36,860 nt of DNA from Deltaproteobacteria bacterium (GCA_016218805.1 JACRCW010000091.1:1-36860), one strand, 5' to 3'. Counted from the stretch's first letter, positions 2,690 through 24,675 are shown. A program made the numbers and translations. Notes: generated by a model not told the origin, from the letters alone.

Positions 2690-2701
2690 GGCGGAGGCGG
2701 C

Positions 2702-4333
2702 GTGGAGACAGACCGCGAAGCGCTCACGCGCGAGTTCCTGGCCGAAAGCACGGACCTCCTGCGCGACATGGAGGAGGCGTTGGTGACCATGGAAGGCGCG
2801 CTTCCGGAGACCGCCGCCGTGGACGCGGTGTTCCGCGGAGCGCACACGCTCAAGGGAAACGCCGGCATTCTCGCGTTTGACGCGGTGGTTGAACTGGCGC
2901 ACGCGTTTGAAGGCCGGCTGGAGGGACTGCGCGGGCGGCACCCGGTGGACAGCGGCACGGTCACGCTGTTGCTCCGCGGAGTGGACGCCCTGCGTGACGC
3001 CATCAGCTGCGCACAGGTGGACCGCACCGCCGCCCTGCCCCCTTCCACCGCGCAGGTGCTGCAACAACTCCGCGCCGCTCCCGGCGCCGCCACCCGCGCA
3101 CCCACGGGCGCCCCGGCTGACGCCGCGCCGCCGGACGAGCGCGCGCGGACCTTGCGGGTGGACGTGGCGCGGCTGGACGAAATGCTCAACGTGGTGGGGG
3201 AAATCGCCGTGGCGCGGGGCCGGCTCACGCAGGCGCTTTCCGCCGGCGCCGCGCACGGCGGTGACGAACTGCTGGAGGCGTACGGCGACACCGAGCGCCT
3301 GTGGTCATCCCTGCAGGAATTGGTCATGCAGGTGCGCCTGGTTCCCGTGGGGCCCCTGTTCCGGCAACACCGCCGCACCGTGCGTGACCTGGCGTTGCGG
3401 CTGGGCAAGCGCGCCCGCCTGGTCCTTGAGGGCGAGGACGTGGAGTTGGACACGGCGGTACTGGACCACCTGCGCGATCCCCTGGTTCACATGGTGCGAA
3501 ACGCCGTGGACCACGGCTTGGAACCGCCGGAAGCGCGCGTGCAAGCCGGCAAGGACCCCGTGGGGACGGTCACGCTCCGCGCGCGTCACGACGCAGGCTC
3601 CCTGGTGATTCAGGTGGAAGACGACGGCCGCGGCCTGGACCGCGCGGCGATCCTGCAACGCGCGCGCGAGCGTGGCCTGCCCCCCGAAGCGGCCACGCAT
3701 GACGCGGACGTCTACCAACTGGTGCTGGAGTCCGGCTTCTCCACCGCGCCCAACATCACCGACGTGTCCGGCCGCGGCGTGGGGCTGGACGTGGTGCGCC
3801 GGAACATTGAGGCGCTCCGGGGAACAGTGACGCTGGACCTGCGCCCGGGAGGCGGTACCCGCGTCACGCTGCGGTTGCCCCTGACGCTGGCGATCATTGA
3901 TGGCTTCCGTGTCGCCGTCGGAGAGCACACGTTTGTGATCCCCATGGGCTCCGTGGTGGAGTGCCTGTCCCTGCCGGGCACCCGGCAGGCAAACGGCGGT
4001 AGCGGCGGCGTCCTGAACCTCCGCGGTGAAGCGCTCCCGTACCTGCAGCTGCGCAATGCGTTCCATCTGGGAGGTCCGTCGCCCACACGCGAGAGCGTGG
4101 TGGTGGTGCGCTACCACGGCGGACGCGCGGGTATCGCTGTCGACGAGCTGCTGGGCCAGGCGCAGACGGTCATCAAGCCGCTGGGTCCGTTGTTCCAGCA
4201 TCTCCCGTCCATTTCCGGCTCGGCCATCCTGGGGAATGGGCGGGTCGCGTTGATTGTCGACGTCGCGGCACTGGTTCGCGATGCCCTGCGCGGCGACGCT
4301 GCCCCACATATGGCCGGAGGAGAGACCGCATGA
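2702..4333 (+). CDS. cheA: Chemotaxis histidine kinase CheA (no P2 domain)
   Basis: Hpt FRGAHTLKG; dimerisation [44 protein letters not shown]-terminal CheW-like domain. Confidence 0.97.
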
Positions 4334-5964
4334 ATGTCAACATCGGCACACGACTCGCAGTCGGCTTTGGGATCATGTCCGCGCTGCTGCTGGCACTGGG
4401 CGGCGTGGCCCTGGACCGCATGGCACAGCTTCAAGCGGACATGCGGCTGGTGGTGTTCAACCGGATGCCCAAGGTGCGCGCCGCGGAAGACGGCATGTCG
4501 CTCATGGAGGACAATGCCCGCATTTCGCTGGCGGTGTTCATTGCCCGGGACCGCGCAGACGTGGACCGCCTGCTGGCGCGGCAGGAAGACAACCGCCGCG
4601 AGATCACGGACACCCTCCAGAAGCTGGAGCGGTCCTTGGACGACGAGCGCGGCCGCTCCCTGCTGCTGGCGGTCAAGGACGCGCGTGAGCGCTTCGTCGC
4701 GACCTTTGTCCGTGCACGCACGCTGCTGTTGCAGGACAAGCGTGACGACGCCCTGGCGGTGGCCAACACGGAGATTGCGTCGCGTCTGGACGACGTGCGG
4801 CGCGCGTGGGACGGGTTCATTGCGCACCAGGAGAACCTGGTGGATGAAGCCGCCCAGGCGGGCGAAGCCAACTACGTGGCCACGCGTGCCATTGTTTCCA
4901 CCGTCATGCTGTTGGCCCTGCTGGCGGCCATCTTTCTCGCATTCCTGGTCACCCGCAGCATCACCCGGCCCATTGCCACCGCCGTGGGCGCGGCGGAGCG
5001 CATTGCCGCGGGAGACCTCAGCCAGCAACTCCAGGTGGCGGGGACGGATGAGACCGCACGGCTGCTGCAGGCCATGCAGCAGATGTCCACGCGCCTGTCG
5101 CAGATCATCGGCGAGGTCCGGACCGGCGCGGACGCGCTGGGTTCCGCATCCACGCAGGTGTCTGCCACGTCACAGACGCTGTCACAGGGGACCAGCGAAC
5201 AGGCCGCGTCCGTCGAAGAGACCACCTCCAGCCTTGAGGAGATCAGCGCTTCCATTTCCCAGAACGCGGACAACAGCCGGCAGACGGAGCAGATGGCAGT
5301 GCGCGGCGCGAGCGACGCTGCGGAAAGCGGTGCGGCGGTGGACGCCACGGTCAACGCCATGAAGGACATTGCCGGGCGCGTCTCCATCATTGAGGACATC
5401 GCCTACCAGACCAACCTCCTGGCGCTGAACGCCGCCATTGAGGCGGCCCGTGCCGGCGAGCACGGCAAGGGGTTCTCCGTCGTGGCAACCGAGGTGCGGA
5501 AGCTTGCAGAGCGCAGCCAGGCCGCCGCCAAGGAGATTGCCACCCTGGCAACGTCCAGCATGGCGGTGGCCGAGCGTTCCGGCCAGTTGCTCAAGGACCT
5601 GGTCCCCGCCATCCGGAAGACCGCGGACCTTGTGCAGGAAGTCGCCGCCGCGTCCCGCGAGCAATCCAGCGGCGTGGCGCAGATCAACAAGGCGATGTCC
5701 CAGGTGGACATGGTGACACAGAGGAACGCGTCCGCTTCGGAGGAGTTGGCGTCCACGGCTGAGGAGATGGCGGCGCAGGCGGAATCCCTGCAGCAGCTGA
5801 TGGGCTTCTTCACGCTGGACACGGTCCACGCGCTGCGCACACCGCCCCGGAAGGACCGCGCGCGTTCCGTTCTCCCGCGGCTGGCGCCCTCTCCCTCGCG
5901 CCCACCGGCACCGGCCCCCCATCACGACGGCGTCGAACCCGAACCGGAATTCAGGCCATTCTGA
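4330..5964 (+). CDS. Methyl-accepting chemotaxis protein (TM, four-helix sensor, TM, HAMP, signalling domain)
   Basis: Two TM helices; HAMP (ITRPI...IAAGDLS...[10 protein letters not shown]); hairpin [40 protein letters not shown]. Confidence 0.97.
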
Positions 5965-5981
5965 GCCGCGGGGGAGTGGTC

Positions 5982-6512
5982 ATGCTGAACCAGACGGACG
6001 GCGCGGCGCAGTACCTGACGTTCTTTGTGGCAGGCGAGGAGTACGCCATTGCGATCCTGCGGGTGGAGGAAATCATCCAATACCGCCCCATCACGCGGGT
6101 TCCCGGCACGCCAGCGTGCATCAGCGGCGTCATCAACCTGCGCGGCCACGTGGTTCCCGTCGTGGACCTCGCGGTGAAGCTCGGGCAGCCTCCCAGCCTG
6201 GTGGCGCGGCGGACGTGCATCGTGGTGGTGCAGGCGCGGGCGGAAGACCGGCCGCTCCTGCTCGGAATCATTGCCGACTCCGTGCACCAGGTGGTGGACC
6301 TCCGCCCGGAGGACATTGAGCCGCCGCCGCCCTTTGGCGTCCGCATCCGGCTGGAATACCTGACGGGCATGGTCCGGATGGACGCCAAGTTCGCACTGCT
6401 GCTCGACATTGACCGCGTGCTGGGCACGGAGGAACTGCTGGGCACAGCCACCCTGACAGCGGCCGAAGCGGCCACCGCCCACGCGGCACCCTCCGACGTT
6501 TCGCGCCTGTGA
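5982..6512 (+). CDS. cheW: Chemotaxis adaptor CheW
   Basis: QYLTFFVAGEEYAI, ITRVPGTP, GVINLRGHVVPVVDL; GGGGAG RBS before ATG 5982. Confidence 0.96.
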   Translation: MLNQTDGAAQYLTFFVAGEEYAIAILRVEEIIQYRPITRVPGTPACISGVINLRGHVVPVVDLAVKLGQPPSLVARRTCIVVVQARAEDRPLLLGIIADSVHQVVDLRPEDIEPPPPFGVRIRLEYLTGMVRMDAKFALLLDIDRVLGTEELLGTATLTAAEAATAHAAPSDVSRL

Positions 6513-7399
6513 CCGGTGCTCCTGGTCGCCCGAGAATGACCCGCGGCGAATTCGCGCTGTTTCAGGCACTGGTTCTCTCCGAGGCGGGCATCTGGCTGGC
6601 CGACGCCAAGCAGGCGCTGCTGGTAACCCGGCTGACCCGGCGCGTCCGCGAGCTGGGCCTGCCCTCGTTCCGCTCGTACCACGAGTTCGTGGAAGCGCAC
6701 CGCGACGCCGAGTTGCCGCGGATGCTCGACCTGGTCTGCACCAATGAAACCCATTTCTTTCGTGAGGCGCAGCACTGGGACCTGCTGGAATCAGCGGTGT
6801 TTCCCCGCTGGGAGGCCGAAGCAGCCGCCGGCCTCCGGCCGCACCACATCCGCGCCTGGTGCGCGGCCTGCTCAACGGGGGAGGAGCCGTTCTCGCTCGC
6901 CATGGTCTTGCACCGGCGGTTCGCTGCGCAGGGTTGGTCCGTGGACGTCCTGGCCAGTGACCTGTCCACGCGCGTGCTGGCCGCAGCCATGGAGGCAACC
7001 TGGCCGGTACAACGTGCGTCAGAGATTCCACCTCCGCTGCTGCGCCGCTACATGCTGCGCGGCACCGGCAGCCAGGAAGGCCGGATGCGGGCAACGCGCC
7101 AGTTGCGCGCGTTGGTCCGGTTTGAGCGGGTCAACCTGAGCCGCGCCCCGCTGCCGGTGCAGGGCCCGTTTGACCTGCTGCTGTGCCGCAACGTCCTCAT
7201 CTACTTCCGGCCCGACGACAAACTCGCCGTCATCCGCCGGCTGCTGCCGCACCTGGCTCCCGCCGGGCTGTTGCTCCTGGGTCACGCTGAGAGTCTCCAA
7301 GCCACCGATCTTGACATCGTCACGGTGGCTCCCACCGTGTACCAGCGACCCTCCCACGCGGCCCGCGCCGCTACCGGGCGGGAAGCGGACCCGCAATGA
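6509..7399 (+). CDS. cheR: Chemotaxis methyltransferase CheR
   Basis: TNETHFFRE, WCAACSTGEEPFSLAM, ASDLS, FDLLLCRNVLIYF, GHAESL. Confidence 0.97.
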   Translation: MTGAPGRPRMTRGEFALFQALVLSEAGIWLADAKQALLVTRLTRRVRELGLPSFRSYHEFVEAHRDAELPRMLDLVCTNETHFFREAQHWDLLESAVFPRWEAEAAAGLRPHHIRAWCAACSTGEEPFSLAMVLHRRFAAQGWSVDVLASDLSTRVLAAAMEATWPVQRASEIPPPLLRRYMLRGTGSQEGRMRATRQLRALVRFERVNLSRAPLPVQGPFDLLLCRNVLIYFRPDDKLAVIRRLLPHLAPAGLLLLGHAESLQATDLDIVTVAPTVYQRPSHAARAATGREADPQ

Positions 7400-8517
7400 T
7401 GAACACGCACCCGCCGTGCACCGTGCTGGTCGTGGATGACTCCGCCGTCGTCCGGGAATCCATGTCCCTCCTTCTGACACGCAGCGGACATTTCCGGGTC
7501 ATTTCTGCGCGTGACCCGATTGTTGCTGCGGAGCGACTCCGCGTGGTGCGGCCGGATGTGATTCTGTTGGACCTGGAGATGCCCCGGCAGGATGGCCTCA
7601 GCTTCCTCCGGCAGGTGATGGCCTCTGGTGATCCGTTGCCCGTGGTTGTGCTCTCGGCGCTGACGGGGGCGGGCACGGACGCCGCCCTCACGGCCCTGGA
7701 GGAGGGCGCTGTGGACGTCATCACCAAACCGCGCCTGGACGTCAAAGGCTTTCTTGAGGACTCCGTGATCCTCATCTCGGACGCGCTGCGTGCGGCCGCA
7801 AGCGTCCGCGCGCCGCGGGCCCGGACACCAATCCTGCCGTCCGCGCGTTTGTCCGCGGGTGCAGTCCTCCCCGCCGCGCGGCTGCTGGCGGTCACCACGG
7901 ACAAGCTGGTTGCCGTGGGAGCCTCCACCGGGGGCACCGAGGCGCTGCGGCGGTTCCTCACCGCGCTCCCGCCCTCCGCTCCGGGAATCGTCGTGGTCCA
8001 GCACATGCCGGAGCGGTTCACGCGTGCGTTCGCTGCGCGGCTGGACGCGGAGTGCGCCGTGACCGTCCGCGAGGCCGCCCACCTGGACAGCGTGATTCCC
8101 GGGCGCGTCCTGGTGGCGCCCGGAAACCGCCAGACCCGCGTCCGCCGAAGCGGCGCCAACTACATCGTGGAGGTTGTGGAGGGTCCGCTGGTGTCACGGC
8201 ACCGGCCCAGCGTGGACGTGCTGTTCCGCTCCGTGGCCGAGTCCGCCGGCGCCAACGCGGCGGGCGTCATCATGACGGGAATGGGCGACGACGGCGCCGC
8301 GGGCCTGCTGGAGATGCACCACGCCGGCGCCCTGTCCCTCGCCCAGGACGAGGCGTCCTGCGTGGTATTCGGCATGCCCAAGGAGGCCATCCGCCGCGGC
8401 GCTGTGGACGAGGTGGTAGCGCTGGACGCGCTGGCGGCCCGCGTCATGGCCTGGGCCGGCCGCCCCGTCAGCCCCAGTCCGCCAGGCGGCACCGCGCCTC
8501 CATCTCGTCCACGGTGA
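7396..8517 (+). CDS. cheB: Chemotaxis response regulator methylesterase CheB
   Basis: N-terminal REC; catalytic GASTGG, QHMP and TGMGDDG; HRPSVDVLF. Confidence 0.97.
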   Translation: MMNTHPPCTVLVVDDSAVVRESMSLLLTRSGHFRVISARDPIVAAERLRVVRPDVILLDLEMPRQDGLSFLRQVMASGDPLPVVVLSALTGAGTDAALTALEEGAVDVITKPRLDVKGFLEDSVILISDALRAAASVRAPRARTPILPSARLSAGAVLPAARLLAVTTDKLVAVGASTGGTEALRRFLTALPPSAPGIVVVQHMPERFTRAFAARLDAECAVTVREAAHLDSVIPGRVLVAPGNRQTRVRRSGANYIVEVVEGPLVSRHRPSVDVLFRSVAESAGANAAGVIMTGMGDDGAAGLLEMHHAGALSLAQDEASCVVFGMPKEAIRRGAVDEVVALDALAARVMAWAGRPVSPSPPGGTAPPSRPR

Positions 8518-9724
8518 TGGGCTTGCTGAACAGGTAGCCCTGCCCCACGTCACAACCCAGTTCCTCCAGCACGGCCAGCTGCTCGCGCGTTTCCACGCCT
8601 TCGGCCACCACCACCAGCTCCATCCGGTGCGCCATCTCCACCACGGCGCGCGCAATGGAGCGTGCCCGCGCGCTGACCGGCATGTCCACAACAAAAGACC
8701 GGTCCAGCTTCAGTTCATCCAACGGCAGCCGGTTGAGGTGACCGAGCGACGAGTAGCCCGTCCCGAAGTCATCCAGCGCGATGGTGAACCCCAGGTCCCG
8801 CGCTGCGGTCAGGACCGCGGCGGCGCGCGCCATGTCCCGCGCCACGGAGGTTTCCGTCACCTCCAACTGCACGCGTCCGGTGGCAACACCGGCCTCCGCG
8901 GCCAGGCGCTGCAGGCCCGGAATGAAATCCGCGGATTCAAGCTGGCGGGCGGATACGTTGACCGCCACATGCGGTGGTTCAATTCCGCCCTTTTCCCAGG
9001 CGGCAACCTGCAACATGGCGCACCGTAACACCCAGTTTCCCACGTCAATGATGAGGTCCGTCGCCTCCGCAACGGGAATGAACTCCGCGGGCGGGACAAA
9101 GCCGCCGTCGGCCCGCGGCCAACGGATCAGCGCCTCCGCACCCACCAGCAAGCGCCCGCGGATGGCAACCTTGGGCTGGTAATGCAGTGCAAACGCGTCA
9201 TCACGCAGCGCCGCGCGGATTCCCGCCTCCAGGCGCTGCTGGCCTTCGTCCGGCGGGCGGGCACCGGGCTGCCGCTCCATGCGGCGCCGGAACTCGGCCT
9301 CCGTGGCCTCGCGCCGCTTCAGGCGCGCTCGCACCGCGCGAAGCAGATCGGCCTTGCGGAATGGCTTGGGCACGTAGTCGTCCGCGCCCAGGTCCATGCC
9401 GGTACGCACGTCCGCATCCGAGGTGCGCGCGGAAAGGAAGATGACGGGAATGGCCTCCGTGGCCGGGTTGCCGCGGAGCTCTGCAAGCAGCTGGTGACCG
9501 TCCACGTGCGGCATGGCCACGTCTGAGACCACCAGGTCCGGCAGGCTGGCCACCGCCAGCGCAAGCCCAGCGCGGCCGTCCGCAGCCGCGGAAACACGAA
9601 ATCCCTCGTTTTCCAGAAAGCGCGCAATTGCCGTCCGCAGGCCCGGATCGTCCTCCACCACCAGCACGTGGCGCCCGGCGGCGCCGTCCTGCATGGGTGC
9701 GGGCACCACGGTGCGCTCGCTCAC
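8468..9724 (-). CDS. REC-EAL c-di-GMP phosphodiesterase response regulator
   Basis: REC (VVEDD, VSDVAMP, FLSA, VPKP) then intact EAL motifs: YQPK, EALIRW, VNVS, LEVTE, DDFGTGYSSL, KLDRSFV, AEGVET, QGYLFSKP. No GGDEF. Confidence 0.95.
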   Translation of the reverse strand: MSERTVVPAPMQDGAAGRHVLVVEDDPGLRTAIARFLENEGFRVSAAADGRAGLALAVASLPDLVVSDVAMPHVDGHQLLAELRGNPATEAIPVIFLSARTSDADVRTGMDLGADDYVPKPFRKADLLRAVRARLKRREATEAEFRRRMERQPGARPPDEGQQRLEAGIRAALRDDAFALHYQPKVAIRGRLLVGAEALIRWPRADGGFVPPAEFIPVAEATDLIIDVGNWVLRCAMLQVAAWEKGGIEPPHVAVNVSARQLESADFIPGLQRLAAEAGVATGRVQLEVTETSVARDMARAAAVLTAARDLGFTIALDDFGTGYSSLGHLNRLPLDELKLDRSFVVDMPVSARARSIARAVVEMAHRMELVVVAEGVETREQLAVLEELGCDVGQGYLFSKPITVDEMEARCRLADWG

Positions 9725-10164
9725 CGCGCGCGCGCCGACGGATCAGCCGCGTAGTAGCGGTCAACCAGCGGGAAGAACTCCTCCTCCTCCCGGTTGATGC
9801 GTCGACGCAGCGCAGCGGCCACCGCACGCCACTCGCTCAGGAACTGCGGCCCGGCCATGGCAATCTCGCAGGGGGACTTCCAGCGCGCCAGGAACGCGTC
9901 CAGCTCGCCGCTCAGCAGTTGCAGCTCGTCGCCAAACCGTTCCGCAACCGCCCGCAGGTCCGGGTCACTCTTTTCCCGCAAACCCGCAAACAGCACCCCG
10001 TCCTCCATCGCCAGGTGCACGCGCAGGACCCCCGCCAGCTCGGCCACCACGTTGCGAACGTCCGTGGCGGATTTCTCCACGTCGGAGTCAGCCAGCCGAT
10101 CAAGCTTGCTGGCCTTGTCCAGGATGAGACGATGCTGCCTTCGCAGATTGCTGGTGAATGCCAT
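9721..10164 (-). CDS. Hemerythrin-like (HHE cation-binding) domain protein
   Basis: LRRQH..I, VHLAMEDGVLF and RINREEEEFFP motifs; GGGAG RBS before ATG 10164. Confidence 0.85.
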   Translation of the reverse strand: MAFTSNLRRQHRLILDKASKLDRLADSDVEKSATDVRNVVAELAGVLRVHLAMEDGVLFAGLREKSDPDLRAVAERFGDELQLLSGELDAFLARWKSPCEIAMAGPQFLSEWRAVAAALRRRINREEEEFFPLVDRYYAADPSARAR

Positions 10165-10198: not shown

Positions 10199-10214
10199 CG
10201 CACTCCGCGTGCCA
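10199..10214 (-). promoter_or_regulatory. Candidate sigma54 promoter of hemerythrin/REC-EAL operon
   Basis: Minus strand TGGCACGCGGAGTGCG: perfect -24 box TGGCACG, GG-N10-GC. Confidence 0.7.
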
Positions 10215-10420: not shown

Positions 10421-10436
10421 AGGCACGCAAGCTGCA
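10421..10436 (+). promoter_or_regulatory. Candidate sigma54 promoter of Roadblock/ODP operon
   Basis: AGGCACGCAAGCTGCA, GG-N10-GC, near-consensus. Confidence 0.7.
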
Positions 10437-10531: not shown

Positions 10532-10900
10532 ATGACGAGGACCGAAACGCTCAACAAGGTGCTGGCGAACCTCCAGTCCAGCGCGGCGGACATCGAGGCC
10601 GCCGCCGTCGTCTCACCCGACGGCCTGATTATCGCCCATTCCCTGCCGCAGGGTCTGGAGGAGACGCAGATTGCCGCCATGAGCGCAGCGCTGTTGTCCA
10701 TGGGCGTGCGGACCGCCCGTGAGCTGCGCCGCGGTCAACTGGAGCAGTTGTTCGTCAAGGGAACTGAGGGATTCATCGTGATCATGCAGGCGGGGCCCCA
10801 CGCGGTCCTCCTCACGCTCGCACGCCGGGACGCCAAGCTCGGGTTGATCTTCCTCGACGTGTCGCGGGCGGCGGAAGAGATCAAGAAGACACTGGCGTGA
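10532..10900 (+). CDS. Roadblock/LC7 (MglB-like) protein
   Basis: IEAAAVVSPDGLIIA, IAAMSAALLSMG...ELRRGQLEQLFVKG, AKLGLIFLDV; GGAG RBS before ATG 10532. Confidence 0.93.
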   Translation: MTRTETLNKVLANLQSSAADIEAAAVVSPDGLIIAHSLPQGLEETQIAAMSAALLSMGVRTARELRRGQLEQLFVKGTEGFIVIMQAGPHAVLLTLARRDAKLGLIFLDVSRAAEEIKKTLA

Positions 10901-10927
10901 TGCCGGCCCACAAAAGGAGACCCCAGG

Positions 10928-11677
10928 ATGATCACGCTCTTTGAGGCACCCCATCACCGCAACGTGATGTTCCATGACATGTCCAGCGGCCAGATGGTCC
11001 AGGCCAACCAGCACGTCATTGTTGACCACGGTGAGTCCATGCTGCTGGACCCGGGCGGTCACAAGGTCTACTCGCGCCTCTTTGGCGAGATGTCCAAGGC
11101 GGCCCCCCCGGCGGGCCTGAAACACCTGTTCTTCTCCCACCAGGACCCGGACATCGTGGCGGCCGCCAACGGCTGGTTCATGGTGACGGAAGCCCGCGGC
11201 TACATCTCTGAGTTGTGGACGCGCTTCGTGCCGCACTTTGGCCTGGATGATCTGGTGGCCGCGCGCCTGCAGGCCATCCCGGACCCGGGCATGACGCTCA
11301 AGGTGGGCCAGTGCGAGTTGCTGATCCTACCCGCCCATTTCCTGCATTCCTCCGGCAACTTCCACGTCTATGACCCCGTCGCCAAGACCCTCTATTCGGG
11401 TGATTTGGGCACGTCCATTGGGCAGGATTACACGGAGGTGGGCAACTTTGATGAGCACGTGCGCTTCATGGAGGGCTTTCACCGCCGCTACATGCCCACG
11501 TCCAAGGCGCTGAAGCGGTGGGTGACCATGGCCCGGAAGCTGGACATTGAGATTCTGGCGCCGCAGCACGGCGCGGTGTTCAAGGGCAAGGAGCGCGTGA
11601 ACCGCTTCCTGGAGTGGGCTGACAACCTGCCCTGCGGGCTGGACCTCATGCCCGACGACGTCGCGCTTCCCCGCTGA
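10928..11677 (+). CDS. ODP-type oxygen-binding di-iron protein (metallo-beta-lactamase fold)
   Basis: VQANQHVI, LLDPGG, FSHQDPD, LWTRFVPH, PAHFLHSSGNF, SGDLG, FHRRYM, APQHG; 249 aa with no flavodoxin domain. Confidence 0.88.
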   Translation: MITLFEAPHHRNVMFHDMSSGQMVQANQHVIVDHGESMLLDPGGHKVYSRLFGEMSKAAPPAGLKHLFFSHQDPDIVAAANGWFMVTEARGYISELWTRFVPHFGLDDLVAARLQAIPDPGMTLKVGQCELLILPAHFLHSSGNFHVYDPVAKTLYSGDLGTSIGQDYTEVGNFDEHVRFMEGFHRRYMPTSKALKRWVTMARKLDIEILAPQHGAVFKGKERVNRFLEWADNLPCGLDLMPDDVALPR

Positions 11678-11693
11678 CGCGCCGGAGCCCGCC

Positions 11694-14600
11694 GTGGAAC
11701 CCACCGAACGAAAGGCCACGCTGTTCTCGGACCTGGTCCGGGCGCTGTCGCTGGCCATGGACCTGGACGGTGGACACAAGCTGTATCACGCCTGGCGCGT
11801 GGGCGTGCTGAGCGAACGGGTGGCGCGGCACCTCGACGGTGCGGAGCCGGAAACGGCGTTTTTGGCCGGCGTCCTGCACGACATTGGCGCAGCGGGAATG
11901 GCGGACCACGTGGTCCACGTGCTGCCGCGCGGCCCCGCGTCCGACGCTGTTCGCCAGCACCCGGCGGTGGGCGCGGCGGTGTTGGCACCGTTCCGGCTCC
12001 TCCGCCCGGTGGCGGACATCGTGGCGGATCACCACGAGAACACCGACGGCTCGGGTTATCCGCACGGCAAGTGCGGTCCGGAGATTGCCGCGGCCGCGTC
12101 GGTGGTGTCGCTCGCTGACACGCTGGAGATTGGGATGCGGGGACAGACCGGAGAGCGCCGGGCCACCACCGCGTGGCGGATTCTCCGCGGCGGCCGGGGC
12201 ACCCGCTGGCCAGCTCACGTTGTGGACGCGGCGTACGGCGCCCTGCACGGCGAGCCGGATCTGTTGGCCGGTCTCTACGAAGAGGAGACGTTGACGCGGT
12301 GGGCGCACGAGGTGCGGTGCGCGCCAGCCGGCCTGGCCGAGTGCACGGAGCACGAGATGTTGTGCCAGTTGTTGTGGCTGTTCGTGCGGCTGTTGGAAGC
12401 AAAACACCCCGCCACCCTGGGCCACTCCGTGCGCACCGCGTTCTACGCGCAGCGCATTGCGCGGGCCGCCGCCCTCACGGAAACGCAACTGTGGGACGTG
12501 TTGTGGGCATCACTGCTGCATGATGTGGGAAAGCTGGGTGTGCGCCGGGAGTTGCTGGAGCGGCAGGCCCCCCTGTCCGCGGACGAGTGGAACGCGGTGA
12601 AGAAGCACGCGGCAGATTCCATGGAAATCATCGGGACCATTGGCGAGCTGGGGCACCTGGCCTACCCGGCCGCGTCACATCACGAGCGCTACGACGGCAC
12701 CGGCTACCCGCTGGGCCTCAAGGGTGACGCCATCCCGCTGCTCGGGCGGATACTTGCGTACGCCGACACGTTTGACGCCATGACGAGCCGGCACGTGCAC
12801 CGGGACCGCATGCCGGCCCGTGAGGCCATCCAGCACATGCACCGTCTGATTGGCGGGCAGTTGGACCCGCACCTGGCCGAGGTGGCCATGGCGGAACTGG
12901 AGCAGTGCAGCGCCGACGAGAGCGCGTTGGCGACCGAACTGGCGGACTTCCGCGCGGTGTTTGAGTCTGACCAGCCAGACCTGGACCGGCTGGTGGGCGT
13001 GAGCGGCGCGCGAACCAGCTACGTCCAGTCCCGCGCGCGCGGGATGATCCTCACGGACGTGGAACCGTTCCACCGCGTGACGGTGAACGCGGCACTGGAG
13101 ATCCTGGACGGACGCGAACACGTCGCATCCGTTGCCGGCGCATCATCCGCCGCGCTGTTCCACCAGTACTTCGACGCGCACGAACACAACGCCATCCGCG
13201 GATATGCGGCGGGGCTGGCTCACGGCCAGGTGACCACGCGCCTGCTGATGACGGCGGACGGTGGAACAGCGGAGTGCGTCTTTGAGCGTGAATCCGCCAC
13301 CGGCACCCTGCGCGTGCTCATTCGCAACGCCTCTCACCGCCTGCGGACGCTCAAGCACCTCTCATTGTTCCACCGCAGCTTCCTGACCAGCGCGGAAGGC
13401 GTGTTCATCGTTGATGACGCGTTGTGCATCGTGGACGCCAACCAGTGCCTGCTGGACATGCTGGGGTACACGCTGGAGGAACTGCGCGGCCAGCCTGCCG
13501 CCGTGCTGTCCCCGCTGCGCCAGCCTCCCGGTCTCACGCTGTTCTCCGGCGCGCGCCGGCGGGCCGTCCCGGGCGCGTGGTCAGGTGATCTGGCGCTGGA
13601 GCGCAAGGATGGACGGGAGATTCCGGTGCATTTCAGCCTGTCCACCGTACGGGACGCGTTTGGGCAATCCGCGGGATTCATCGCGCGGGCCACGGACATC
13701 ACGGAGCGCAAGCGGCTGGAGTTGGAACTGGCGGAAAAGAACCGGCGCCTTGAAGAGCTCAGCCGCTTCAAGAGTGACATCGTCGCCATTGCGTCACATG
13801 ACCTCAAGACGCCGCTGGCGGCCATCCTGGCCTGGACGGAACTGCTGGCTGACGACCTGGCCGCGCAGGGACGCCCGGATGCGGCGCGGAACATTGGCCA
13901 CATCCTGGAGGCGGGTCACAAGATGAGCATGCTCATCCGTGATCTGCTGGATTTGGCCAGGATCGAATCAGGCACGTTGACCATCCACGGCCGCGCGGCG
14001 CTGCTGGAGACCATCATTGAAGACTGCATCTCCATCCACGCGCCCGGCGCGGTGGAACGCGGCATCCAGCTGAAGTTCCGCAATGACGCACCCCGGGTCC
14101 GCGTCAACGTGGATGATGCGCGGCTGGAGCAGGTGCTCAACAACCTGCTTTCCAACGCGGTCAAGTACTCACCGCGCGGGAGTTGTGTGGAGATCATGGC
14201 GGCGCACGCCGCGGGCGGCGCGGTCAGCGTGGCCGTGTTGGACGGCGGGCCCGGTATCCCGGAGGGTGAGCTTGAACGCATCTTTGAACGCTACGCGCAG
14301 GGTGCGCCGCCGCTGGAGCACCGCGGAGCTGTCGGAGCCAGCGTCGGAATGGGGCTCCACATCGCCCGCAGCATCGTTCAACTGCACGGCGGGTCGCTGC
14401 TGGCGGACAACCGCCCGGGCGGTGGCTCGTGCTTCACGCTGACCCTGCCGCCGGAGCGCGTCCTATCCGGCGCGGCCGTGGCTACCGCGGTCCTGGCCAC
14501 GTCGGACGACCGTGCCCTGGCGCAATTCTCGGAGATTCTTGCACGCCAGCACATCAGTGCAGTGGTGGCCTCCCATCCCGGCCAGTTGCCGGCACTCGTG

Positions 14601-14849
14601 GACGGCGGCTCGCCGCGGCTGTGCGTGGTGGATCTCCGCCAGGCGGATAACCCGCCGCCCGCGTGGGATGAGCTCGTGCGTGCCGTGGATCGGCGCGGGC
14701 CCACGCGCCCGCTGCTGGTGGCCCTGGGCCACGCGGCATCTGCGTCCGTGGACGCGGTCCCGTGGGATCGCGTGCTGGAGCCCCCGCTGCTGGACGTAGA
14801 GATTCTGGAGCTTCTACGCGACTGTCACATCGCCGCGGAGCGCGGATGA
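11694..14849 (+). CDS. Tandem HD-GYP + PAS + histidine kinase + pseudo-receiver fusion protein
   Basis: HD-GYP 1 (HAWRV, LHDIG, HHENTDGSGYP); HD-GYP 2 (HSVR, LHDVGK, HHERYDGTGYP, ADTFDAMTS); PAS (DANQCLLDMLGYTLEELRG...RKDG...DITERK); HisKA SHDLKTPL; NLLSNAVKYS, DGGPGI, GMGLHI; C-terminal REC-like fold. Confidence 0.92.
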   Translation: MEPTERKATLFSDLVRALSLAMDLDGGHKLYHAWRVGVLSERVARHLDGAEPETAFLAGVLHDIGAAGMADHVVHVLPRGPASDAVRQHPAVGAAVLAPFRLLRPVADIVADHHENTDGSGYPHGKCGPEIAAAASVVSLADTLEIGMRGQTGERRATTAWRILRGGRGTRWPAHVVDAAYGALHGEPDLLAGLYEEETLTRWAHEVRCAPAGLAECTEHEMLCQLLWLFVRLLEAKHPATLGHSVRTAFYAQRIARAAALTETQLWDVLWASLLHDVGKLGVRRELLERQAPLSADEWNAVKKHAADSMEIIGTIGELGHLAYPAASHHERYDGTGYPLGLKGDAIPLLGRILAYADTFDAMTSRHVHRDRMPAREAIQHMHRLIGGQLDPHLAEVAMAELEQCSADESALATELADFRAVFESDQPDLDRLVGVSGARTSYVQSRARGMILTDVEPFHRVTVNAALEILDGREHVASVAGASSAALFHQYFDAHEHNAIRGYAAGLAHGQVTTRLLMTADGGTAECVFERESATGTLRVLIRNASHRLRTLKHLSLFHRSFLTSAEGVFIVDDALCIVDANQCLLDMLGYTLEELRGQPAAVLSPLRQPPGLTLFSGARRRAVPGAWSGDLALERKDGREIPVHFSLSTVRDAFGQSAGFIARATDITERKRLELELAEKNRRLEELSRFKSDIVAIASHDLKTPLAAILAWTELLADDLAAQGRPDAARNIGHILEAGHKMSMLIRDLLDLARIESGTLTIHGRAALLETIIEDCISIHAPGAVERGIQLKFRNDAPRVRVNVDDARLEQVLNNLLSNAVKYSPRGSCVEIMAAHAAGGAVSVAVLDGGPGIPEGELERIFERYAQGAPPLEHRGAVGASVGMGLHIARSIVQLHGGSLLADNRPGGGSCFTLTLPPERVLSGAAVATAVLATSDDRALAQFSEILARQHISAVVASHPGQLPALVDGGSPRLCVVDLRQADNPPPAWDELVRAVDRRGPTRPLLVALGHAASASVDAVPWDRVLEPPLLDVEILELLRDCHIAAERG

Positions 14850-15748
14850 CAAACGCCGACGGGGGACGCGTGCTGATCGTGGACGATGACCCGTCCACGC
14901 ACGCTGCATTGGCCACCTACCTGCGGCATGCGGGTCTGGACGTCTGTGATGCGTTCTCCGGCGAGGAGGCACTGGAGGTGATTGTGGCCCAACGTCCGCA
15001 CCTGGTGCTGCTGGACGTGCAGATGCCAGGCGTGGACGGATTTGAAACGCTCCGCCGCTTCAAGGCGATGCCCGGCATCCGGGATATCCCGGTGTTGATG
15101 GTGACCAGCATGGACCGCCAGCACCTCAAGGTGCGCGGGCTGGAACTCGGCGCGGAAGACTACGTGCTCAAACCGTTTGATCGCGCGGAATTGCTCGCCC
15201 GCATCCGTGCCGTGCTCCGCCGCGCGCGCCGGTCGTTCTCGTCGGACGCGTTCATGGCCGGCCGGCTGGAGGAAATCGGCATCCTGGAAGTGCTGCAGAC
15301 GCTGGATGGCACCGGGCGTGCAGCCCGGGTGACCGTGCCCGCGTTGGAAGCCGTCATTGAGCTGCAGAAGGGCACGCTGGTGCGCGTCACCCTGGGACGC
15401 TGGACCGGACAGGCCGCGCTGGAACGCCTCCTGCTGCTCCAGCAGGGGTCGTTCTCCGTTACCCCCGCCGACAACCAGGCGGCCCCCGGTGACGCCCGCC
15501 TCATGCCGGCGCTGCTGGCGGCGGCCACGGTGGTGGACGAGGCCCGCGACCTGCTTGCCGCGCCGCTGCGGGACAACCCGCGCGTTCAGCGGCCCCACGC
15601 GGGCGCGGCAGATACCCGCGCACCCGCGCGGGTGTTCCGGCTGCTGGCGGAGATGGACGGTGACCTGCGGGATTGCGCCCGCTCAATCAACGCGGAATTC
15701 GAAAGCGGGCAGTTGCTGCCGCTCGACGACAGAACCGCCGGCCCGTGA
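14846..15748 (+). CDS. Response regulator REC + DUF4388 (PatA-N-like)
   Basis: Canonical REC, then FMAGRLEEIGILEVLQTL...GQAALERLLLLQQGSFSV typical of DUF4388; ATGA overlap with upstream gene. Confidence 0.88.
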   Translation: MTNADGGRVLIVDDDPSTHAALATYLRHAGLDVCDAFSGEEALEVIVAQRPHLVLLDVQMPGVDGFETLRRFKAMPGIRDIPVLMVTSMDRQHLKVRGLELGAEDYVLKPFDRAELLARIRAVLRRARRSFSSDAFMAGRLEEIGILEVLQTLDGTGRAARVTVPALEAVIELQKGTLVRVTLGRWTGQAALERLLLLQQGSFSVTPADNQAAPGDARLMPALLAAATVVDEARDLLAAPLRDNPRVQRPHAGAADTRAPARVFRLLAEMDGDLRDCARSINAEFESGQLLPLDDRTAGP

Positions 15749-15770
15749 ATTGCGGCAATTGGAGGTGAGC

Positions 15771-16577
15771 ATGGGAAGGATCATCACGGTGGCGAGCCAC
15801 AAGGGTGGCGTGGGCAAGACCACCACGACGCTCAACCTGGGCTTCAGCCTGGCGCGGGCCGGAGGCCGCACGCTCGTCGTGGACGCGGACCCGCAGGGAG
15901 GGCTGGGCGCTGCGTCCAACGTCCGGTCGCGCACGCCGTTGGGGGTGACGGACGTGCTGGCGGGCCGCGCATCACTTGAGGATGCCATTGCCCGCAGCCG
16001 TTCCGGGAACCTGTCGGTGATTGGAATGGGTGCGGCCACGGCGGAGGATGTGCGCTGCGTGGAGGACGCCGCGGCGGATGGCCGGTTGGCGGACCTGTTG
16101 CGCTCCCTGGCGCCGGCCTGGGACCACGTGCTGGTGGACGCGCCCGCTGGCGTGGGCGGCCTGGTGCGCGCCTTGCTGGACGGGAGTGACGGCGTCCTGC
16201 TGGTGCTGCATTGCCGGCCCATTGCCGTCCGCACGCTGCCTGCGTTCCTGCGGCTGCTGAAGGACCAGGCGCAGGCCGGGGACGCGCCCCGCCTGGAGGG
16301 TGTGCTGGTCACCATGATGAACCACGCCAGTGCCGTGGACGTGGGCCTCCTGCAGGAGCTGCGCGCGCGCCTGCCGGCGGGCACGTTGTTCCACACCGTG
16401 GTCCCGCAAGACCCGCGTTTTGAATCCGCCAGTGCCCAGGCCATTCCCGTGGCGCTCTCCGCCGAGGCGGCGTCGCTGGCGCGCTACTACCTGGAACTGG
16501 CGATTGAGCTGGAACAGCGCAACCGGCAGGCCGCCGGTGGAGTGGATGATGACGCAGCGTCTGCCTCCCTTTTCTGA
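15771..16577 (+). CDS. ParA/MinD/Soj-family ATPase (orphan, no parB)
   Basis: Deviant Walker A SHKGGVGKTT, VVDADPQG, VLVDAPAG; GGAGG RBS. Confidence 0.93.
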   Translation: MGRIITVASHKGGVGKTTTTLNLGFSLARAGGRTLVVDADPQGGLGAASNVRSRTPLGVTDVLAGRASLEDAIARSRSGNLSVIGMGAATAEDVRCVEDAAADGRLADLLRSLAPAWDHVLVDAPAGVGGLVRALLDGSDGVLLVLHCRPIAVRTLPAFLRLLKDQAQAGDAPRLEGVLVTMMNHASAVDVGLLQELRARLPAGTLFHTVVPQDPRFESASAQAIPVALSAEAASLARYYLELAIELEQRNRQAAGGVDDDAASASLF

Positions 16578-17121
16578 GATTGACGAGGCTGCGAGCCTGG
16601 CGCGGGAAATCGCGGTGCTTGGCGTTTCTACGCGGAGGACCAGCCGGCCCCCGCCGGCGTCCGCGCGTGCCCGCGCCGTCCCGCCGCCCGCCCCGGACCG
16701 GCTGCCGCCGTTGCCGCCCCGTCCCGCGGCCACGGGTAGCTACCGGTCGGACCGGCTCGGCTCGCTGCTGGCGGGGATGTGCCACCGCGGAGGGTTTGCC
16801 GCCGCGCTGCTGGCGGACCGGGGCGGACTTGCCCTGGTGGGTCACAACAGCGCCCCCAACGCGGACCGCGCCGCGGCGTTTGCTTCCATCGTCGGCGAGG
16901 CCATCACGCGCGCCGAGACATTGCTCAGCGTCCCGCAGGCCAACAACCTGGCGCTGGACATCAACCTCCAACAGAAGATTGTCATTCACCGCTTTCCTGC
17001 CGCCGGGGAGGAGTTCCTCCTCATGGTCACGTGTGACCAGGACGTTGACGTGCGCGCTGAGACCGAGGCCACGGTGGAGCACCTGGCCCGCGAGCTGGCG
17101 CCCGCACTGGAGGCCGGATGA
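16546..17121 (+). CDS. Pro-rich linker + Roadblock/profilin-like domain protein
   Basis: C-terminal GFAAALLADRGGLALVG...RAAAFASIVGEA...KIVIHRF...FLLMVTC pattern resembles Roadblock/LC7; overlaps both neighbours. Confidence 0.7.
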   Translation: MMTQRLPPFSEIDEAASLAREIAVLGVSTRRTSRPPPASARARAVPPPAPDRLPPLPPRPAATGSYRSDRLGSLLAGMCHRGGFAAALLADRGGLALVGHNSAPNADRAAAFASIVGEAITRAETLLSVPQANNLALDINLQQKIVIHRFPAAGEEFLLMVTCDQDVDVRAETEATVEHLARELAPALEAG

Positions 17122-18224
17122 TCCTCGTTGTTGATGACGACGCCGCGATGACGGCGTTTGTGCGGACCACGCTGGAGAGCGACGGCCGTGCGGTCCGGAC
17201 CTGCCATGCCGTGCCCGAGGCGATGGAATGGTTGGAAGGCGCCGAGCCGGACCTCATCATTTCCGACGTGGTGATGGGCACGCTGGGCGGGTTTGAGTTC
17301 CGCCGGCTGCACCAGGATCGCTTTCCCACCCGGCTCACGCCGTTCCTGTTCCTCTCCTCACTGTCGGACACGGAGAAGATTGTGGAGGGCCTGGAACTGG
17401 GCGCGGATGATTTCCTGGTGAAGCCCGTGGCCCCGCAACTGCTGCGGGCCAAGGTGCGTGCCCACCTGCGGCAGAAGTCGCGCTATGCCGCGGCAACGTT
17501 CCAGGGTGACGTGGCCAGTTTTCCCTTCATCAAGGTGCTGCAGTTCTGCGAAACCAAGTTCCTCAACGGCGACGTCACGGTGGACGCCCCCGGACTCAGC
17601 GTGCGGCTGGGGTTTGCGGCCGGCCAGGTGCTGCAGGACGGCGGTTCCAGTGACACGGTCCTGGAAAAGCTGCTGGACCTGCGCGAAGGCCGGTTCACCG
17701 TCCGTTCCGCGCCCGTGGATTTCTCCGAGATTGCCGCGGCCAGCCCGGCACGCGCACCGGCCGCGCCGTCACCCGCCGCTTCCAGCTCCGTGATGGGCTG
17801 CCTGTCCGGGGTTCGCGTCGGCAAGCGCCTGTTCCAGGTGCAGTCGGAGTTCTTGGCCCACCCCGACCCGGTGGCCGTGTCCGTGGTGATCCTTGATGGG
17901 CGCACGCTGCTCAAGCGCGTGAGCGACCCGCTACCCGGGCGCACGCGCGAGGAGTGGCAGCGCGCGGTCCAGGAACAGCACCGCCGCGTGGAAGCGGAGG
18001 TGGGTGAGCGCGTGCAGGCAGCGGCGGACAAGGGCACCGCCGCCTCCACGCCGGTGCGGGATGCCCACGTCTGGATCGAGGAGGGACTCGGGCGCTACCT
18101 GGCGCTGGACTACGTGGGAGCGCTGGCCGCGTGGGAGGAGGCGGCGCGCCTGGACCCGGGCAACAAGGGCCTGGAGGTGAATCTGCGCATTGTCCGGAAG
18201 AAGCTCACGGACGCAGCGCCATGA
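17118..18224 (+). CDS. Response regulator REC + DUF4388 + unknown domain + C-terminal TPR
   Basis: REC intact; FQGDVASFPFIKVLQFCE...LLDLREGRFTV (DUF4388); FQVQSE-containing small domain; EEGLGRYLALDYVGALAAWEEAARLDPGN TPR. Confidence 0.87.
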   Translation: MILVVDDDAAMTAFVRTTLESDGRAVRTCHAVPEAMEWLEGAEPDLIISDVVMGTLGGFEFRRLHQDRFPTRLTPFLFLSSLSDTEKIVEGLELGADDFLVKPVAPQLLRAKVRAHLRQKSRYAAATFQGDVASFPFIKVLQFCETKFLNGDVTVDAPGLSVRLGFAAGQVLQDGGSSDTVLEKLLDLREGRFTVRSAPVDFSEIAAASPARAPAAPSPAASSSVMGCLSGVRVGKRLFQVQSEFLAHPDPVAVSVVILDGRTLLKRVSDPLPGRTREEWQRAVQEQHRRVEAEVGERVQAAADKGTAASTPVRDAHVWIEEGLGRYLALDYVGALAAWEEAARLDPGNKGLEVNLRIVRKKLTDAAP

Positions 18225-18248
18225 GCCGGATGCGGGCTTGATCAGGTA

Positions 18249-19658
18249 ATGCCCGCCGTGCACCGCCACCTCCCGACCCCTGTTGCCGGTTTGGCCGGCG
18301 TCCGCGTGCTCCTGCTGGAGCGCGATGACTCCCGCCGCGCTGCGGTGCGTGACGCCCTGCAGTCCTGCGGTGCGGTGGTGGGTGACGTTCCCGCCAGCTG
18401 CGCCGCGCCGGAGCGGCACGGGGTCCGCGGCGGGTTTGACGTGGCGCTCTGGGACGGCACGCTCACGGGCCGGTGGAACCTGGATGACCTCCAGCGGTTC
18501 CACGCCGCCCAGCCGGAGATTGCCGTGGTTGTCACCACGGCCCGGGATTCCGCGGCATTTGCTGTGACCGCGCTGCGCCGCGGCGCGCACCATGTGGTGG
18601 TGCGCCCCGCGCGCTTGGAGGAATTGCTGCGCATTGTGGCGGACGTGGCGCTGGCCACGCGCGTCCCCCTTCCCGCTCCTGCCGCCGTGGAGGGCGGCTG
18701 TGTGGTGGCCGGCGCGGCCATGCGGGAGGTGATGGACACACTGCGCCGGGTGGCGGACTCCGCCGCGCCCGTGCTCCTCCTCGGTGAGACCGGGGTCGGC
18801 AAGGACGTTGTGGCGCGCCTGTTGCACGCGCGCAGCGCACGGGCGGCGGGTCCGTTTGTCGCCGTGAACTGCGCTGCGCTCCCCGTGGCGCTTGCCGAAT
18901 CCGAGTTGTTTGGCCACGAGCGCGGGGCGTTCACCGGCGCCACCGCGGACCGGCCGGGCCGTTTTGCGGAGGCGGATGGCGGAACGCTGCTGTTGGACGA
19001 GGTGGGAGAGCTGCACGTGCGGCTGCAGGCCAAGCTGTTGCGCGTTCTGCAGGACGGAACGCTGCCACGCGTTGGCGGTCCTACGCATCGCGCGGACGTG
19101 CGGGTGGTGGCGTCCACCCACCGCGACCTCCGCGCCGACATGCGCCATGGCCGCTTCCGCTCCGACCTGTTCCATCGCCTGAATGTCCTGGCCATCCGCC
19201 TTCCGCCGCTGCGTGAACGCGTGGATGAGATCCCGGCGCTGGCCACCCACCTGCTCCACCGCCTGGCCGTGCAAGAGCAGTGCGTGCCGCGGCCGCTGCT
19301 GCCAAATGCCATCCGCGCCCTGCAGGAACATGCGTGGCCCGGCAACGTGCGCGAGTTGGAGAACCTGCTGCGCCGCACCCTCCTCACGCGGCCGGGCTCC
19401 GTGATCTCCGCGGCTCACCTCGCGTGGCCCGAGCCCGGACCGCTGCCCGCGGTCACCGCCGCACCCCTCGCCACGCCTGCCGGCCCGGCACCGGCGCGGG
19501 GCACCACCATGCGTTCCGCCGCCATGGAGCGCGAGGCCACCACCATGCTCCGCGCGCTGGAGGTGTACGGCGGCAACGTCCGGGAGGCCGCGCGCTCGCT
19601 CGGGATTTCGCGCGCCACCTACTACCGGAAGGCCCGCCGGCTGGGGCTCCGCCTGTGA
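18249..19658 (+). CDS. Sigma54-dependent enhancer-binding protein with degenerate receiver
   Basis: GETGVGKD, ESELFGHERGAFTGA, LLLDEVGE, WPGNVREL, Fis-type HTH GISRATYYRK. Receiver atypical (LLERDD; RP in place of KP). Confidence 0.93.
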   Translation: MPAVHRHLPTPVAGLAGVRVLLLERDDSRRAAVRDALQSCGAVVGDVPASCAAPERHGVRGGFDVALWDGTLTGRWNLDDLQRFHAAQPEIAVVVTTARDSAAFAVTALRRGAHHVVVRPARLEELLRIVADVALATRVPLPAPAAVEGGCVVAGAAMREVMDTLRRVADSAAPVLLLGETGVGKDVVARLLHARSARAAGPFVAVNCAALPVALAESELFGHERGAFTGATADRPGRFAEADGGTLLLDEVGELHVRLQAKLLRVLQDGTLPRVGGPTHRADVRVVASTHRDLRADMRHGRFRSDLFHRLNVLAIRLPPLRERVDEIPALATHLLHRLAVQEQCVPRPLLPNAIRALQEHAWPGNVRELENLLRRTLLTRPGSVISAAHLAWPEPGPLPAVTAAPLATPAGPAPARGTTMRSAAMEREATTMLRALEVYGGNVREAARSLGISRATYYRKARRLGLRL

Positions 19659-24530: not shown

Positions 24531-24567
24531 CGCTCCGCCCTTGAGACGGTGTGCCGCTGACGAGACA
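24531..24567. promoter_or_regulatory. Tandem candidate EBP binding sites
   Basis: CGCTCCG-CCCT-TGAGACG (24531) and TGTGCCG-CTGA-CGAGACA (24550), between divergent sigma54-like promoters. Confidence 0.5.
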
Positions 24568-24647
24568 CCGCCCGCGCAAAGCGTGCGGGAAGGTGGATTG
24601 AACTCCTTCCGCCGCGCCACCGTTCCCAACGCGCGTTGCGAAAGCGT

Positions 24648-24663
24648 TGGATTGGACCTTGCA
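24648..24663 (+). promoter_or_regulatory. Candidate sigma54 promoter of ABC-phosphatase operon
   Basis: TGGATTGGACCTTGCA, GG-N10-GC with perfect TTGCA. Confidence 0.6.
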
Positions 24664-24675
24664 CCGCGCCCACGC

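Follow-up and report, generated by a model that had tools for sequence, protein, structure and literature searches.

The known role of Roadblock proteins is to regulate small GTPases. A chemoreceptor system built on the oxygen-binding di-iron protein (ODP) was reportedly described in Treponema denticola and Thermotoga maritima by Muok et al. in 2019. Myxococcus xanthus sets its cell polarity by a module of MglA, MglB, MglC and RomY (PMC9481161, PMC13408092), in which RomY's N-terminal domain acts as a co-GAP, stimulating the GTPase-activating protein (GAP) activity of MglB on MglA (PMC9481161). MglA and MglB are also encoded beside PATAN genes, and many MglBs are orphans, none of which had been characterized as of 2014 (PMC4316618). 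PATAN is the domain listed as DUF4388, and in Synechocystis PATAN regulators touch the pilus motor (bioRxiv 10.1101/2021.06.11.447907). ParA domains of the PriB1 clade have been stated to displace MglA in MglA-MglB signalling systems, in one sentence and one figure panel (Fig. 2B, panel 16) of a preprint whose main text mentions neither oxygen, Roadblock, PATAN nor receivers (bioRxiv 10.64898/2026.10.19.760177). Here we analyse a gene cassette at positions 10,532 to 19,658 of a 36,860-nucleotide stretch from a Deltaproteobacteria bacterium (GCA_016218805.1, JACRCW010000091.1; hereafter the window), which is one contig of a 6.43 Mb, 70% GC genome that is 92% complete and whose gene content suggests a Myxococcota-like host. 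The cassette combines two Roadblock proteins, an ODP, a ParA ATPase, PATAN-type regulators and a RomY-like domain. What the sequence shows is which parts are present, how they are ordered, which motifs they carry and how they co-occur. The cassette is a real and conserved variant of the MglA/MglB module.

Like the M. xanthus polarity module (PMC9481161, PMC13408092), the cassette has two Roadblock-fold proteins, a RomY N-terminal-like domain, receiver (REC) inputs and hosts with type IV pili. Unlike that module, it carries ParA and no MglA in the operon, its RomY-like domain is fused to REC-PATAN and TPR, it has a dedicated ODP and a soluble kinase/HD-GYP protein, and its hosts include anaerobes. 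Roadblock, PATAN/DUF4388 and two-component parts are shared with the MglA/MglB-PATAN neighbourhoods (PMC4316618) and with the cyanobacterial PatA-type PATAN-REC systems (10.1101/2021.06.11.447907), from which the cassette differs by ParA in place of MglA, by REC standing N-terminal to PATAN and by the ODP input. Its ODP is a true orthologue, by profile, of that in the Treponema/Thermotoga chemoreceptor system (PMC7666581), but no receptor gene is coupled to it and a Roadblock is its constant neighbour. The Actinobacterial conservon, with its membrane HAMP kinase CvnA, CvnB, CvnC and GTPase CvnD, is a further contrast, as the cassette kinase has HD-GYP and PAS domains with no listed HAMP match, and no GTPase is present.

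The original prediction made for this DNA called the operon undescribed. That no longer holds for ParA displacing MglA or for MglA/MglB beside PATAN, both of which appear in the reports above (bioRxiv 10.64898/2026.10.19.760177, PMC4316618), but the ODP and RomY links are unreported in the literature that we found. In our search, which covered few subscription papers, no paper came up that links ODP to Roadblock/ParA or that describes a fusion of RomY with REC-PATAN, and the combinations ParA-DUF4388-HD-GYP and MglA-globin gave nothing on the cassette. The cassette amounts to an MglB/RomY/PATAN regulator kit of the MglA switch with ParA in MglA's place, ODP being the likely input. As to its function, we tentatively favor, at a little under an even chance, an O2/iron-gated spatial switch in which Roadblock-1 (RB1), Roadblock-2 (RB2) and the RomY-like domain would control ParA and the PATAN proteins would pass the output to pili or poles. 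The interactions among the cassette products are all inferred.

Architecture, conservation and hosts of the cassette

The cassette region holds eight open reading frames (ORFs) on the + strand, with spacings of 27, 16, -4, 22, -29, -4 and 24 nucleotides, as follows (aa, amino acids).

10532..10900, + strand: RB1, 122 aa (Pfam Robl_LC7, 9e-18)
10928..11677, + strand: ODP, 249 aa (Pfam ODP, 8e-68)
11694..14849, + strand: soluble tandem HD-GYP - PAS - histidine kinase, 1051 aa (Pfam HD_5 twice, PAS_9, HisKA, HATPase_c)
14846..15748, + strand: REC-PATAN (DUF4388) response regulator, 300 aa (Pfam Response_reg, 3e-29; DUF4388, 1e-7)
15771..16577, + strand: orphan ATPase of the ParA/Soj type, 268 aa, whose acidic tail ends in xLF (Pfam AAA_31/CbiA)
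16549..17121, + strand: RB2, 190 aa, with a conserved N-terminal helix, a variable Pro-rich linker and an MglB-fold domain (AlphaFold2 (AF2) and Foldseek)
17118..18224, + strand: gene 7, REC - PATAN-like - RomY-like - TPR regulator, 368 aa (Pfam REC, 4e-21)
17781..18044, + strand: RomY N-terminal-like domain within gene 7 (profile comparison)
18249..19658, + strand: gene 8, REC - sigma54 enhancer-binding protein - Fis helix-turn-helix, 469 aa (Pfam Sigma54_activat, 2e-62; HTH_8)

To place the cassette among its relatives, genome contigs were scanned with ODP, which gave at least 589 relatives; the best 80 yielded the 79 ODP loci on which all locus counts are based, many of them ending early at contig ends. 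ParA is present in 41/79 loci, where it is accompanied by RB2 in 38, REC-DUF4388 in 36, the kinase in 26, gene 7 in 20 and a sigma54 activator in 1. RB1 lies immediately 5' of ODP in 60/79. The host records of related loci include Desulfobacterota, Myxococcota, Nitrospirota and Acidobacteriota, across which the gene order is conserved, and two labelled Pseudomonadota/Proteobacteria. Among isolates, the cassette is found in Geomonas sp. Red32, Desulfuromusa kysingii, Desulfatibacillum alkenivorans and Desulforhopalus sp. IMCC35007. Its spread is patchy: RB2 was detected in 5 of 251 genomes sampled from one phylum (3 strong matches, including the centre genome) and in 0/40 relatives of the window's own genome. 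No membrane domain was detected in the small core proteins.

These data bear out the predicted set of closely spaced, co-directional genes, separated by at most 27 nucleotides or overlapping, with Pfam in agreement on the domain calls, and the neighbourhood comparison that had been proposed upholds the gene order. Seven of the eight genes belong to the conserved cassette. The eighth, which encodes the sigma54 activator, is accessory; with an activator downstream in 1/41 loci, it was rejected as a core member. The sixth gene, described as Roadblock-like, turned out to encode a true Roadblock with the MglB fold. For gene 7, read as REC-DUF4388-TPR, the REC stands and the DUF4388 and TPR parts are weak, and the additional RomY-like domain had gone unnamed.

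One related locus (L036 in our numbering) has the cassette split into two divergently transcribed halves, and elsewhere ODP pairs with unrelated outputs or stands alone. Both observations would suit a loose signalling island, with ODP and RB1 as one unit and REC-PATAN/ParA/RB2 as another, co-transcribed but not physically linked. Even in L036, however, the halves remain adjacent, and the minimal versions in L027, L053 and L069, which consist of RB1-ODP-ParA/RB2, keep both ends of the cassette with nothing between them. We consider such an island very improbable.

ParA and Roadblock-2 at the MglA position

The cassette ParA resembles chromosomal ParA/Soj and the orphan positioning ParAs in its Walker motifs (deviant A, A' and B), and ParA/Soj structures are its closest matches in the PDB (8RAY, 2e-27; 1WCV, 2e-20). 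Across the 40 unfused ParA rows used for all residue counts, the signature Lys of the deviant Walker A is kept in 37, the Walker A' Asp in 38 and the Walker B Asp in 40. The protein is unlike ParA/Soj in its Roadblock partner gene, in its acidic tail, with the xLF end present in 33/40, and in lacking nucleoid-binding arginines and the Asn that follows DPQG in Soj (0/40). The two basic residues for non-specific DNA binding are R189 and R218 in Bacillus subtilis Soj (PMC3778016); Arg stands at these positions in 3/40 and 2/40 rows, the columns having been inferred through the 1WCV alignment, whose first region aligns with gaps. On these residues a role as a nucleoid-surfing partition protein appears unlikely, and a Soj-like nucleoid role was rejected. 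No ParB was recognized among the cassette genes. Compared with PriB1, the cassette ParA has the Gln after DxD but Ser where PriB1 reportedly has Asn before Walker A (bioRxiv 10.64898/2026.10.19.760177). Five otherwise complete cassettes (L048, L052, L075, L082, L086) have an altered ParA Walker A, the catalytic Lys being replaced by Gln in two loci and the signature Lys being gone in three.

The gene that follows parA encodes RB2, whose start was placed at 16549. Pfam gave no match for the window RB2, and 25/36 family members match Robl_LC7 at E<=1. The AF2 model (pLDDT 86.6) has Thermus MglB as its top Foldseek match (3T1S, E 4e-8), and the profile comparison between RB2 and RB1 is weak (32.9%). 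The cassette thus encodes two Roadblock/MglB-fold regulators, RB1 as recognized by Pfam and RB2 by Foldseek. Under the rule that couples MglA to a Roadblock when the GTPase lies within four genes of it (PMC4316618), no MglA is coupled to the window cassette. In 35 of 36 homologous loci, parA is the gene directly 5' of RB2, and the two genes overlap. The two are fused in two loci, and a protein search gave 8 fusion clusters from four sources. The fusions have neither the acidic xLF tail of ParA nor the N-terminal helix of RB2, and this loss of both elements upon fusion suggests that tail and helix serve as tethers between the separate proteins. In the predicted fold of a natural fusion (pLDDT 79.8, pTM 0.56), the linker is of low confidence and the domains have no fixed orientation.

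MglA takes the place of ParA in 11/79 ODP loci, ten of them from Chloroflexota. All ten encode a kinase, MglA, a PATAN-Roadblock fusion and ODP, and seven have a separate Roadblock after MglA. This operon, HK-MglA-Roadblock-PATAN/Roadblock-protoglobin-ODP (HK, histidine kinase; 10/79 loci), is like the cassette in having ODP, both Roadblock types, PATAN and a kinase; it differs in that MglA stands directly before the RB2-like gene, often with protoglobin (in 7/11 MglA-type loci), and in that no ParA or RomY-like domain was detected. The RB2 profile from the ParA cassettes matches a Roadblock in 8/11 MglA-type loci (E 4.5e-15 to 1e-5), mostly above matches to the RB1 type (best 3e-6), and mglA directly precedes this RB2 homologue in 7/11. 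Of the 52 ODP loci with ParA or MglA, only L095 has both; its mglA, the sole one in the flanks of the 41 ParA loci, is a separate gene on the opposite strand with its own Roadblock. In an ODP tree calculated by a quick method, with 26/77 inner branches open, the Chloroflexota MglA type forms one clade (SH-aLRT 98), and which way the ParA/MglA swap went is not evident from the tree.

Other arrangements of RB2 were seen. In L067 (10866-11579), an RB1-ODP locus without ParA, RB2 carries a fused DNA-binding domain of the HTH_17/MerR type, through which the same core might act on transcription. A Myxococcota variant (L061, L077, L080) has the order RB1-ODP-REC protein-(OmpA in L061)-membrane/coiled-coil RB2-kinase, in which no nucleoside triphosphatase (NTPase) was seen.

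Input proteins, the RomY-like domain and host MglA

The ODP scores 228.6 bits with Pfam (PF19583, cut-off 27.2) and, among solved structures, matches the ODPs 6QRQ (E 5e-67) and 6QNM (E 4e-58). Residues H71, Q72, D73, D75, H137, H140, D159, Q213 and H214 are conserved in 92-93 of 93 rows and make up its metal-site motifs. The protein is a true ODP orthologue and a predicted di-iron O2/Fe(II) sensor. RB1 is highly conserved (mean column identity 72%, 39 rows), and its nearest solved sequences are the Asgard archaeal Roadblocks 7F8M (E 4e-34) and 9JUE (E 7e-30), with a far weaker match to Myxococcus MglB (E 4e-4). In the kinase, both HD and both GYP-region motifs are intact and the H-box is present, so that the HD-GYP domains are putative phosphodiesterases; HD-GYP is fused or adjacent in 17 of the 26 ParA loci with a kinase. 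Both receivers, in REC-PATAN and in gene 7, keep the phospho-Asp motif. The original prediction has ODP feeding the kinase. A kinase is present in 26/41 ParA loci, and none lies between ODP and ParA in the other 15, several of which have one upstream. Because of this gap, and because RB1 so regularly precedes ODP, the most constant partner gene of ODP is a Roadblock. Together with the smallest versions, reduced to RB1, ODP and ParA/RB2, the gap suggests that ODP would signal chiefly via RB1.

Further oxygen-binding genes recur at these loci: a second ODP gene in 6/41 ParA loci, and hemerythrin 3' of the cassette in 2/41 (L060, L087) as well as next to the window cassette. The own genome's second ODP (contig C144, L023:6406-9061) lies directly 3' of a same-strand tubulin/FtsZ-family GTPase gene (Pfam 5e-14, with a TubZ-like C-terminal match at 6e-5), with no Roadblock nearby. 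Another ODP-Roadblock output, with ODP, a Ser/Thr kinase-TPR protein, two Roadblocks and a second ODP, was seen in L062:3836-8647 and L073.

The intact tandem HD-GYP and kinase motifs bear on a different role for ParA, that of a cargo-positioning ATPase of the ParC/PpfA type. RB2 would then be the adaptor, in keeping with its helix-linker-domain layout, the Roadblocks would scaffold an ODP-kinase-phosphodiesterase cluster, and the output would be cyclic di-GMP and gene expression without polarity switching; in the window, the neighbours of the cassette do include a REC-EAL gene, a che cluster and the gene for a sigma54 activator. Yet HD-GYP occurs in only 17/41 loci and the kinase in 26/41, just one locus has che genes close to the cassette and one the activator, and the Soj-type DNA-binding arginines are missing. 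As the RomY-like and PATAN domains would also be left unexplained, we regard this role as improbable.

Gene 7 has a weak DUF4388 match of 20.4 bits, below the cut-off of 25, and a weak TPR match. The region between them is conserved, and was aligned from the window and 15 of 20 gene 7 homologues, the other five being left out. In the own genome, the resulting profile has its best non-self matches (E 0.019 and 0.18) in two proteins that NCBIfam assigns to the RomY family (1e-34 and 3e-20). The NCBIfam model NF053858, RomY_Nterm, is matched by 12/16 gene 7 rows (best 2.1e-7), though not by the window row, and the L026 homologue reaches 24.1 bits against a cut-off of 50. Comparison by hhalign with 22 canonical RomY domains gave 96.9% (E 1.6e-10, 64 columns), with QxE, G and QH in common. 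When 4399 ORFs were ranked with a RomY profile, 15 gene 7 proteins came out on top. An ESM Atlas search with the domain returned unnamed or TPR clusters only, and no solved RomY structure was matched. From these profile comparisons we consider the domain homologous to the RomY N-terminal domain, and its presence strengthens the case for polarity-module ancestry. A second modular RomY was found in the own genome (contig C13, L108:3247-4680, - strand), where a RomY N-terminal domain is fused to two TIGR02266 domains. DUF4388 has 26 matches in this genome, one of them at the C-terminus of a PAS - HD-GYP protein in the window (26558-28291, - strand).

The original prediction had noted that no MglA-like GTPase is present in the window. 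This is correct, but a genome without MglA was rejected: Pfam ATP_bind_1 missed the MglA-like proteins, and a custom MglA profile found three, on contigs C143, C15 and C18. No Roadblock was detected beside any of them, the only Roadblocks detected in the genome being those of the cassette. The genome also encodes RomY, six PilT-family proteins over cut-off and FliG. MglA is found elsewhere in 40/40 genomes holding the 41 ParA loci, compared with 146/251 in a background of genomes from one host phylum. Where the cassette has gene 7, canonical RomY is encoded in 19/20 genomes, and where it lacks gene 7, in 2/15; for PilB above cut-off the figures are 20/20 and 7/15, respectively (5 genomes in which the contig ended were excluded); the MglA, RomY and PilB figures are raw genome counts with no correction for kinship. 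Such co-occurrence would be expected if the cassette feeds the host polarity module, and equally if it merely resides in such hosts. In five genomes without gene 7 (G005:C23, G013:C26, G016:C432, G001:C3, G026:C28), MglA was seen at most about 8 kilobases from a PilB/GspE-type ATPase.

Since MglA is present elsewhere in all 40 genomes, its absence from the window is no proof that ParA is the NTPase of the Roadblocks. The cassette might instead be a plug-in for the host MglA, in which RB1/RB2 and a phosphorylation-gated RomY-like domain would form a second, O2-controlled GAP complex acting in trans on chromosomal MglA, with ParA only positioning or holding RB2. The MglA proteins without Roadblock neighbours in the own genome, the enrichment of MglA in cassette genomes, the tracking of canonical RomY by gene 7 and five loci with RB1, ODP and RB2 but no NTPase seen would all suit a plug-in. 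The co-occurrence is uncorrected for kinship, however, and most cassettes without gene 7 belong to hosts of the Desulfobacterales type or to Desulfocapsaceae. At the position next to RB2, moreover, ParA and MglA nearly exclude each other, and RB1 is distant from Myxococcus MglB. We judge the plug-in unlikely, while keeping it as a serious competitor.

The spatial switch with ParA as its NTPase remains our preferred reading. The placement of parA before and overlapping RB2 and of mglA before the RB2 homologue argues for it, as do the ParA-RB2 fusion, the MglB fold of RB2, the RomY-like domain and the invariant ODP motifs. It is also consistent with the contact between PATAN regulators and the pilus motor in Synechocystis, with the PilB counts, with the recurring O2-binding genes and with the same displacement inferred in bioRxiv 10.64898/2026.10.19.760177. 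The ParA position and the fusion speak in part for the predicted role of ParA in a spatial switch, and the RomY-like domain for polarity-module ancestry. Several points weigh against it. Besides the host MglA, the tracking of canonical RomY and the NTPase-free loci, the natural ParA-RB2 fusions have Gln in place of the signature Lys; this loss, along with the absent Asn after DPQG, means that ATP turnover by ParA may be weak. The likeness of the gene 7 domain to RomY is remote and under the family cut-off. Many hosts are anaerobes, in which ODP may report iron instead of O2, and the pilus output is proposed from co-occurrence counts that had no background for comparison.

In the mechanism that we propose, a spatial switch would be assembled from parts of the MglA/MglB/RomY polarity module, with the ParA ATPase in MglA's place. 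RB1 and RB2 would form a Roadblock dimer, tethered to ParA via the N-terminal helix of RB2 and/or the acidic xLF tail of ParA. Aided by the RomY-like domain of gene 7, this dimer would set the nucleotide state of ParA, as MglB and RomY do for MglA. ODP would report O2/Fe(II), with RB1 as the most likely recipient, joined by the soluble kinase in those cassettes that have one. This kinase would phosphorylate both REC-PATAN proteins, and its HD-GYP domains would lower cyclic di-GMP. ParA, not binding the nucleoid as Soj does, would mark a cell site, probably a pole, at which the PATAN domains could act on the type IV pilus motor or on the host polarity module. Cells moving on a surface would in this way alter direction or attachment with oxygen. 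A more specific version, that a Roadblock heterodimer and a phosphorylation-gated RomY-like co-activator activate the ATPase of ParA, a SIMIBI protein, with a Roadblock-bound di-iron protein as the oxygen gate, strikes us as doubtful.

The cassette offers a test case for whether Roadblock/RomY-type proteins regulate a ParA ATPase or retune a host MglA from a separate operon. It may also let an oxygen/iron signal reach the machinery of polarity and pili with no chemoreceptor involved, and would give ODP a new output. If the more specific version above holds, it would be a GTPase-free, oxygen-controlled polarity switch for pilus motility, and the MglB/RomY machinery would be re-targetable across NTPase classes.

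Sigma54 motifs and the surroundings of the cassette

Two features lie on the 5' side of the cassette.

10421..10436, + strand: candidate sigma54 (-24/-12) promoter, 10/12 consensus positions, about 95 nucleotides upstream of RB1
9721..10161, - strand: divergent hemerythrin gene (Pfam Hemerythrin, 3e-15), followed by REC-EAL at 8468-9724

The promoter was scored against the sigma54 (-24/-12) consensus. Its score is reached in 3/40 upstream regions, where 0.2 are expected; one of the three belongs to L079, the single locus besides the window in which a sigma54 activator lies downstream. In the window as a whole there are 18 such matches, with 9.35 expected by chance; as matches of this kind are so common here, local sigma54 control is only a lead. 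A second sigma54-like motif at 10199-10214 (- strand) faces the hemerythrin/REC-EAL genes, and the intergenic region may for this reason hold divergent sigma54 promoters.

Further upstream, positions 1076-8517 hold a complete che cluster (CheY-like receiver, GAF protein, CheD, CheA, methyl-accepting chemotaxis protein (MCP), CheW, CheR, CheB). Its MCP, a 4HB-HAMP receptor, lies 4.5 kilobases upstream of the cassette in this separate cluster. A link between the two was rejected: MCP/CheW genes are found in one related locus and CheA/R/B in none, and the only MCP gene in a related locus (L039) is on the opposite strand. Downstream of the cassette, at 24541-26025, an ABC-transporter-like ATPase domain is fused to a dual-specificity/tyrosine phosphatase domain.

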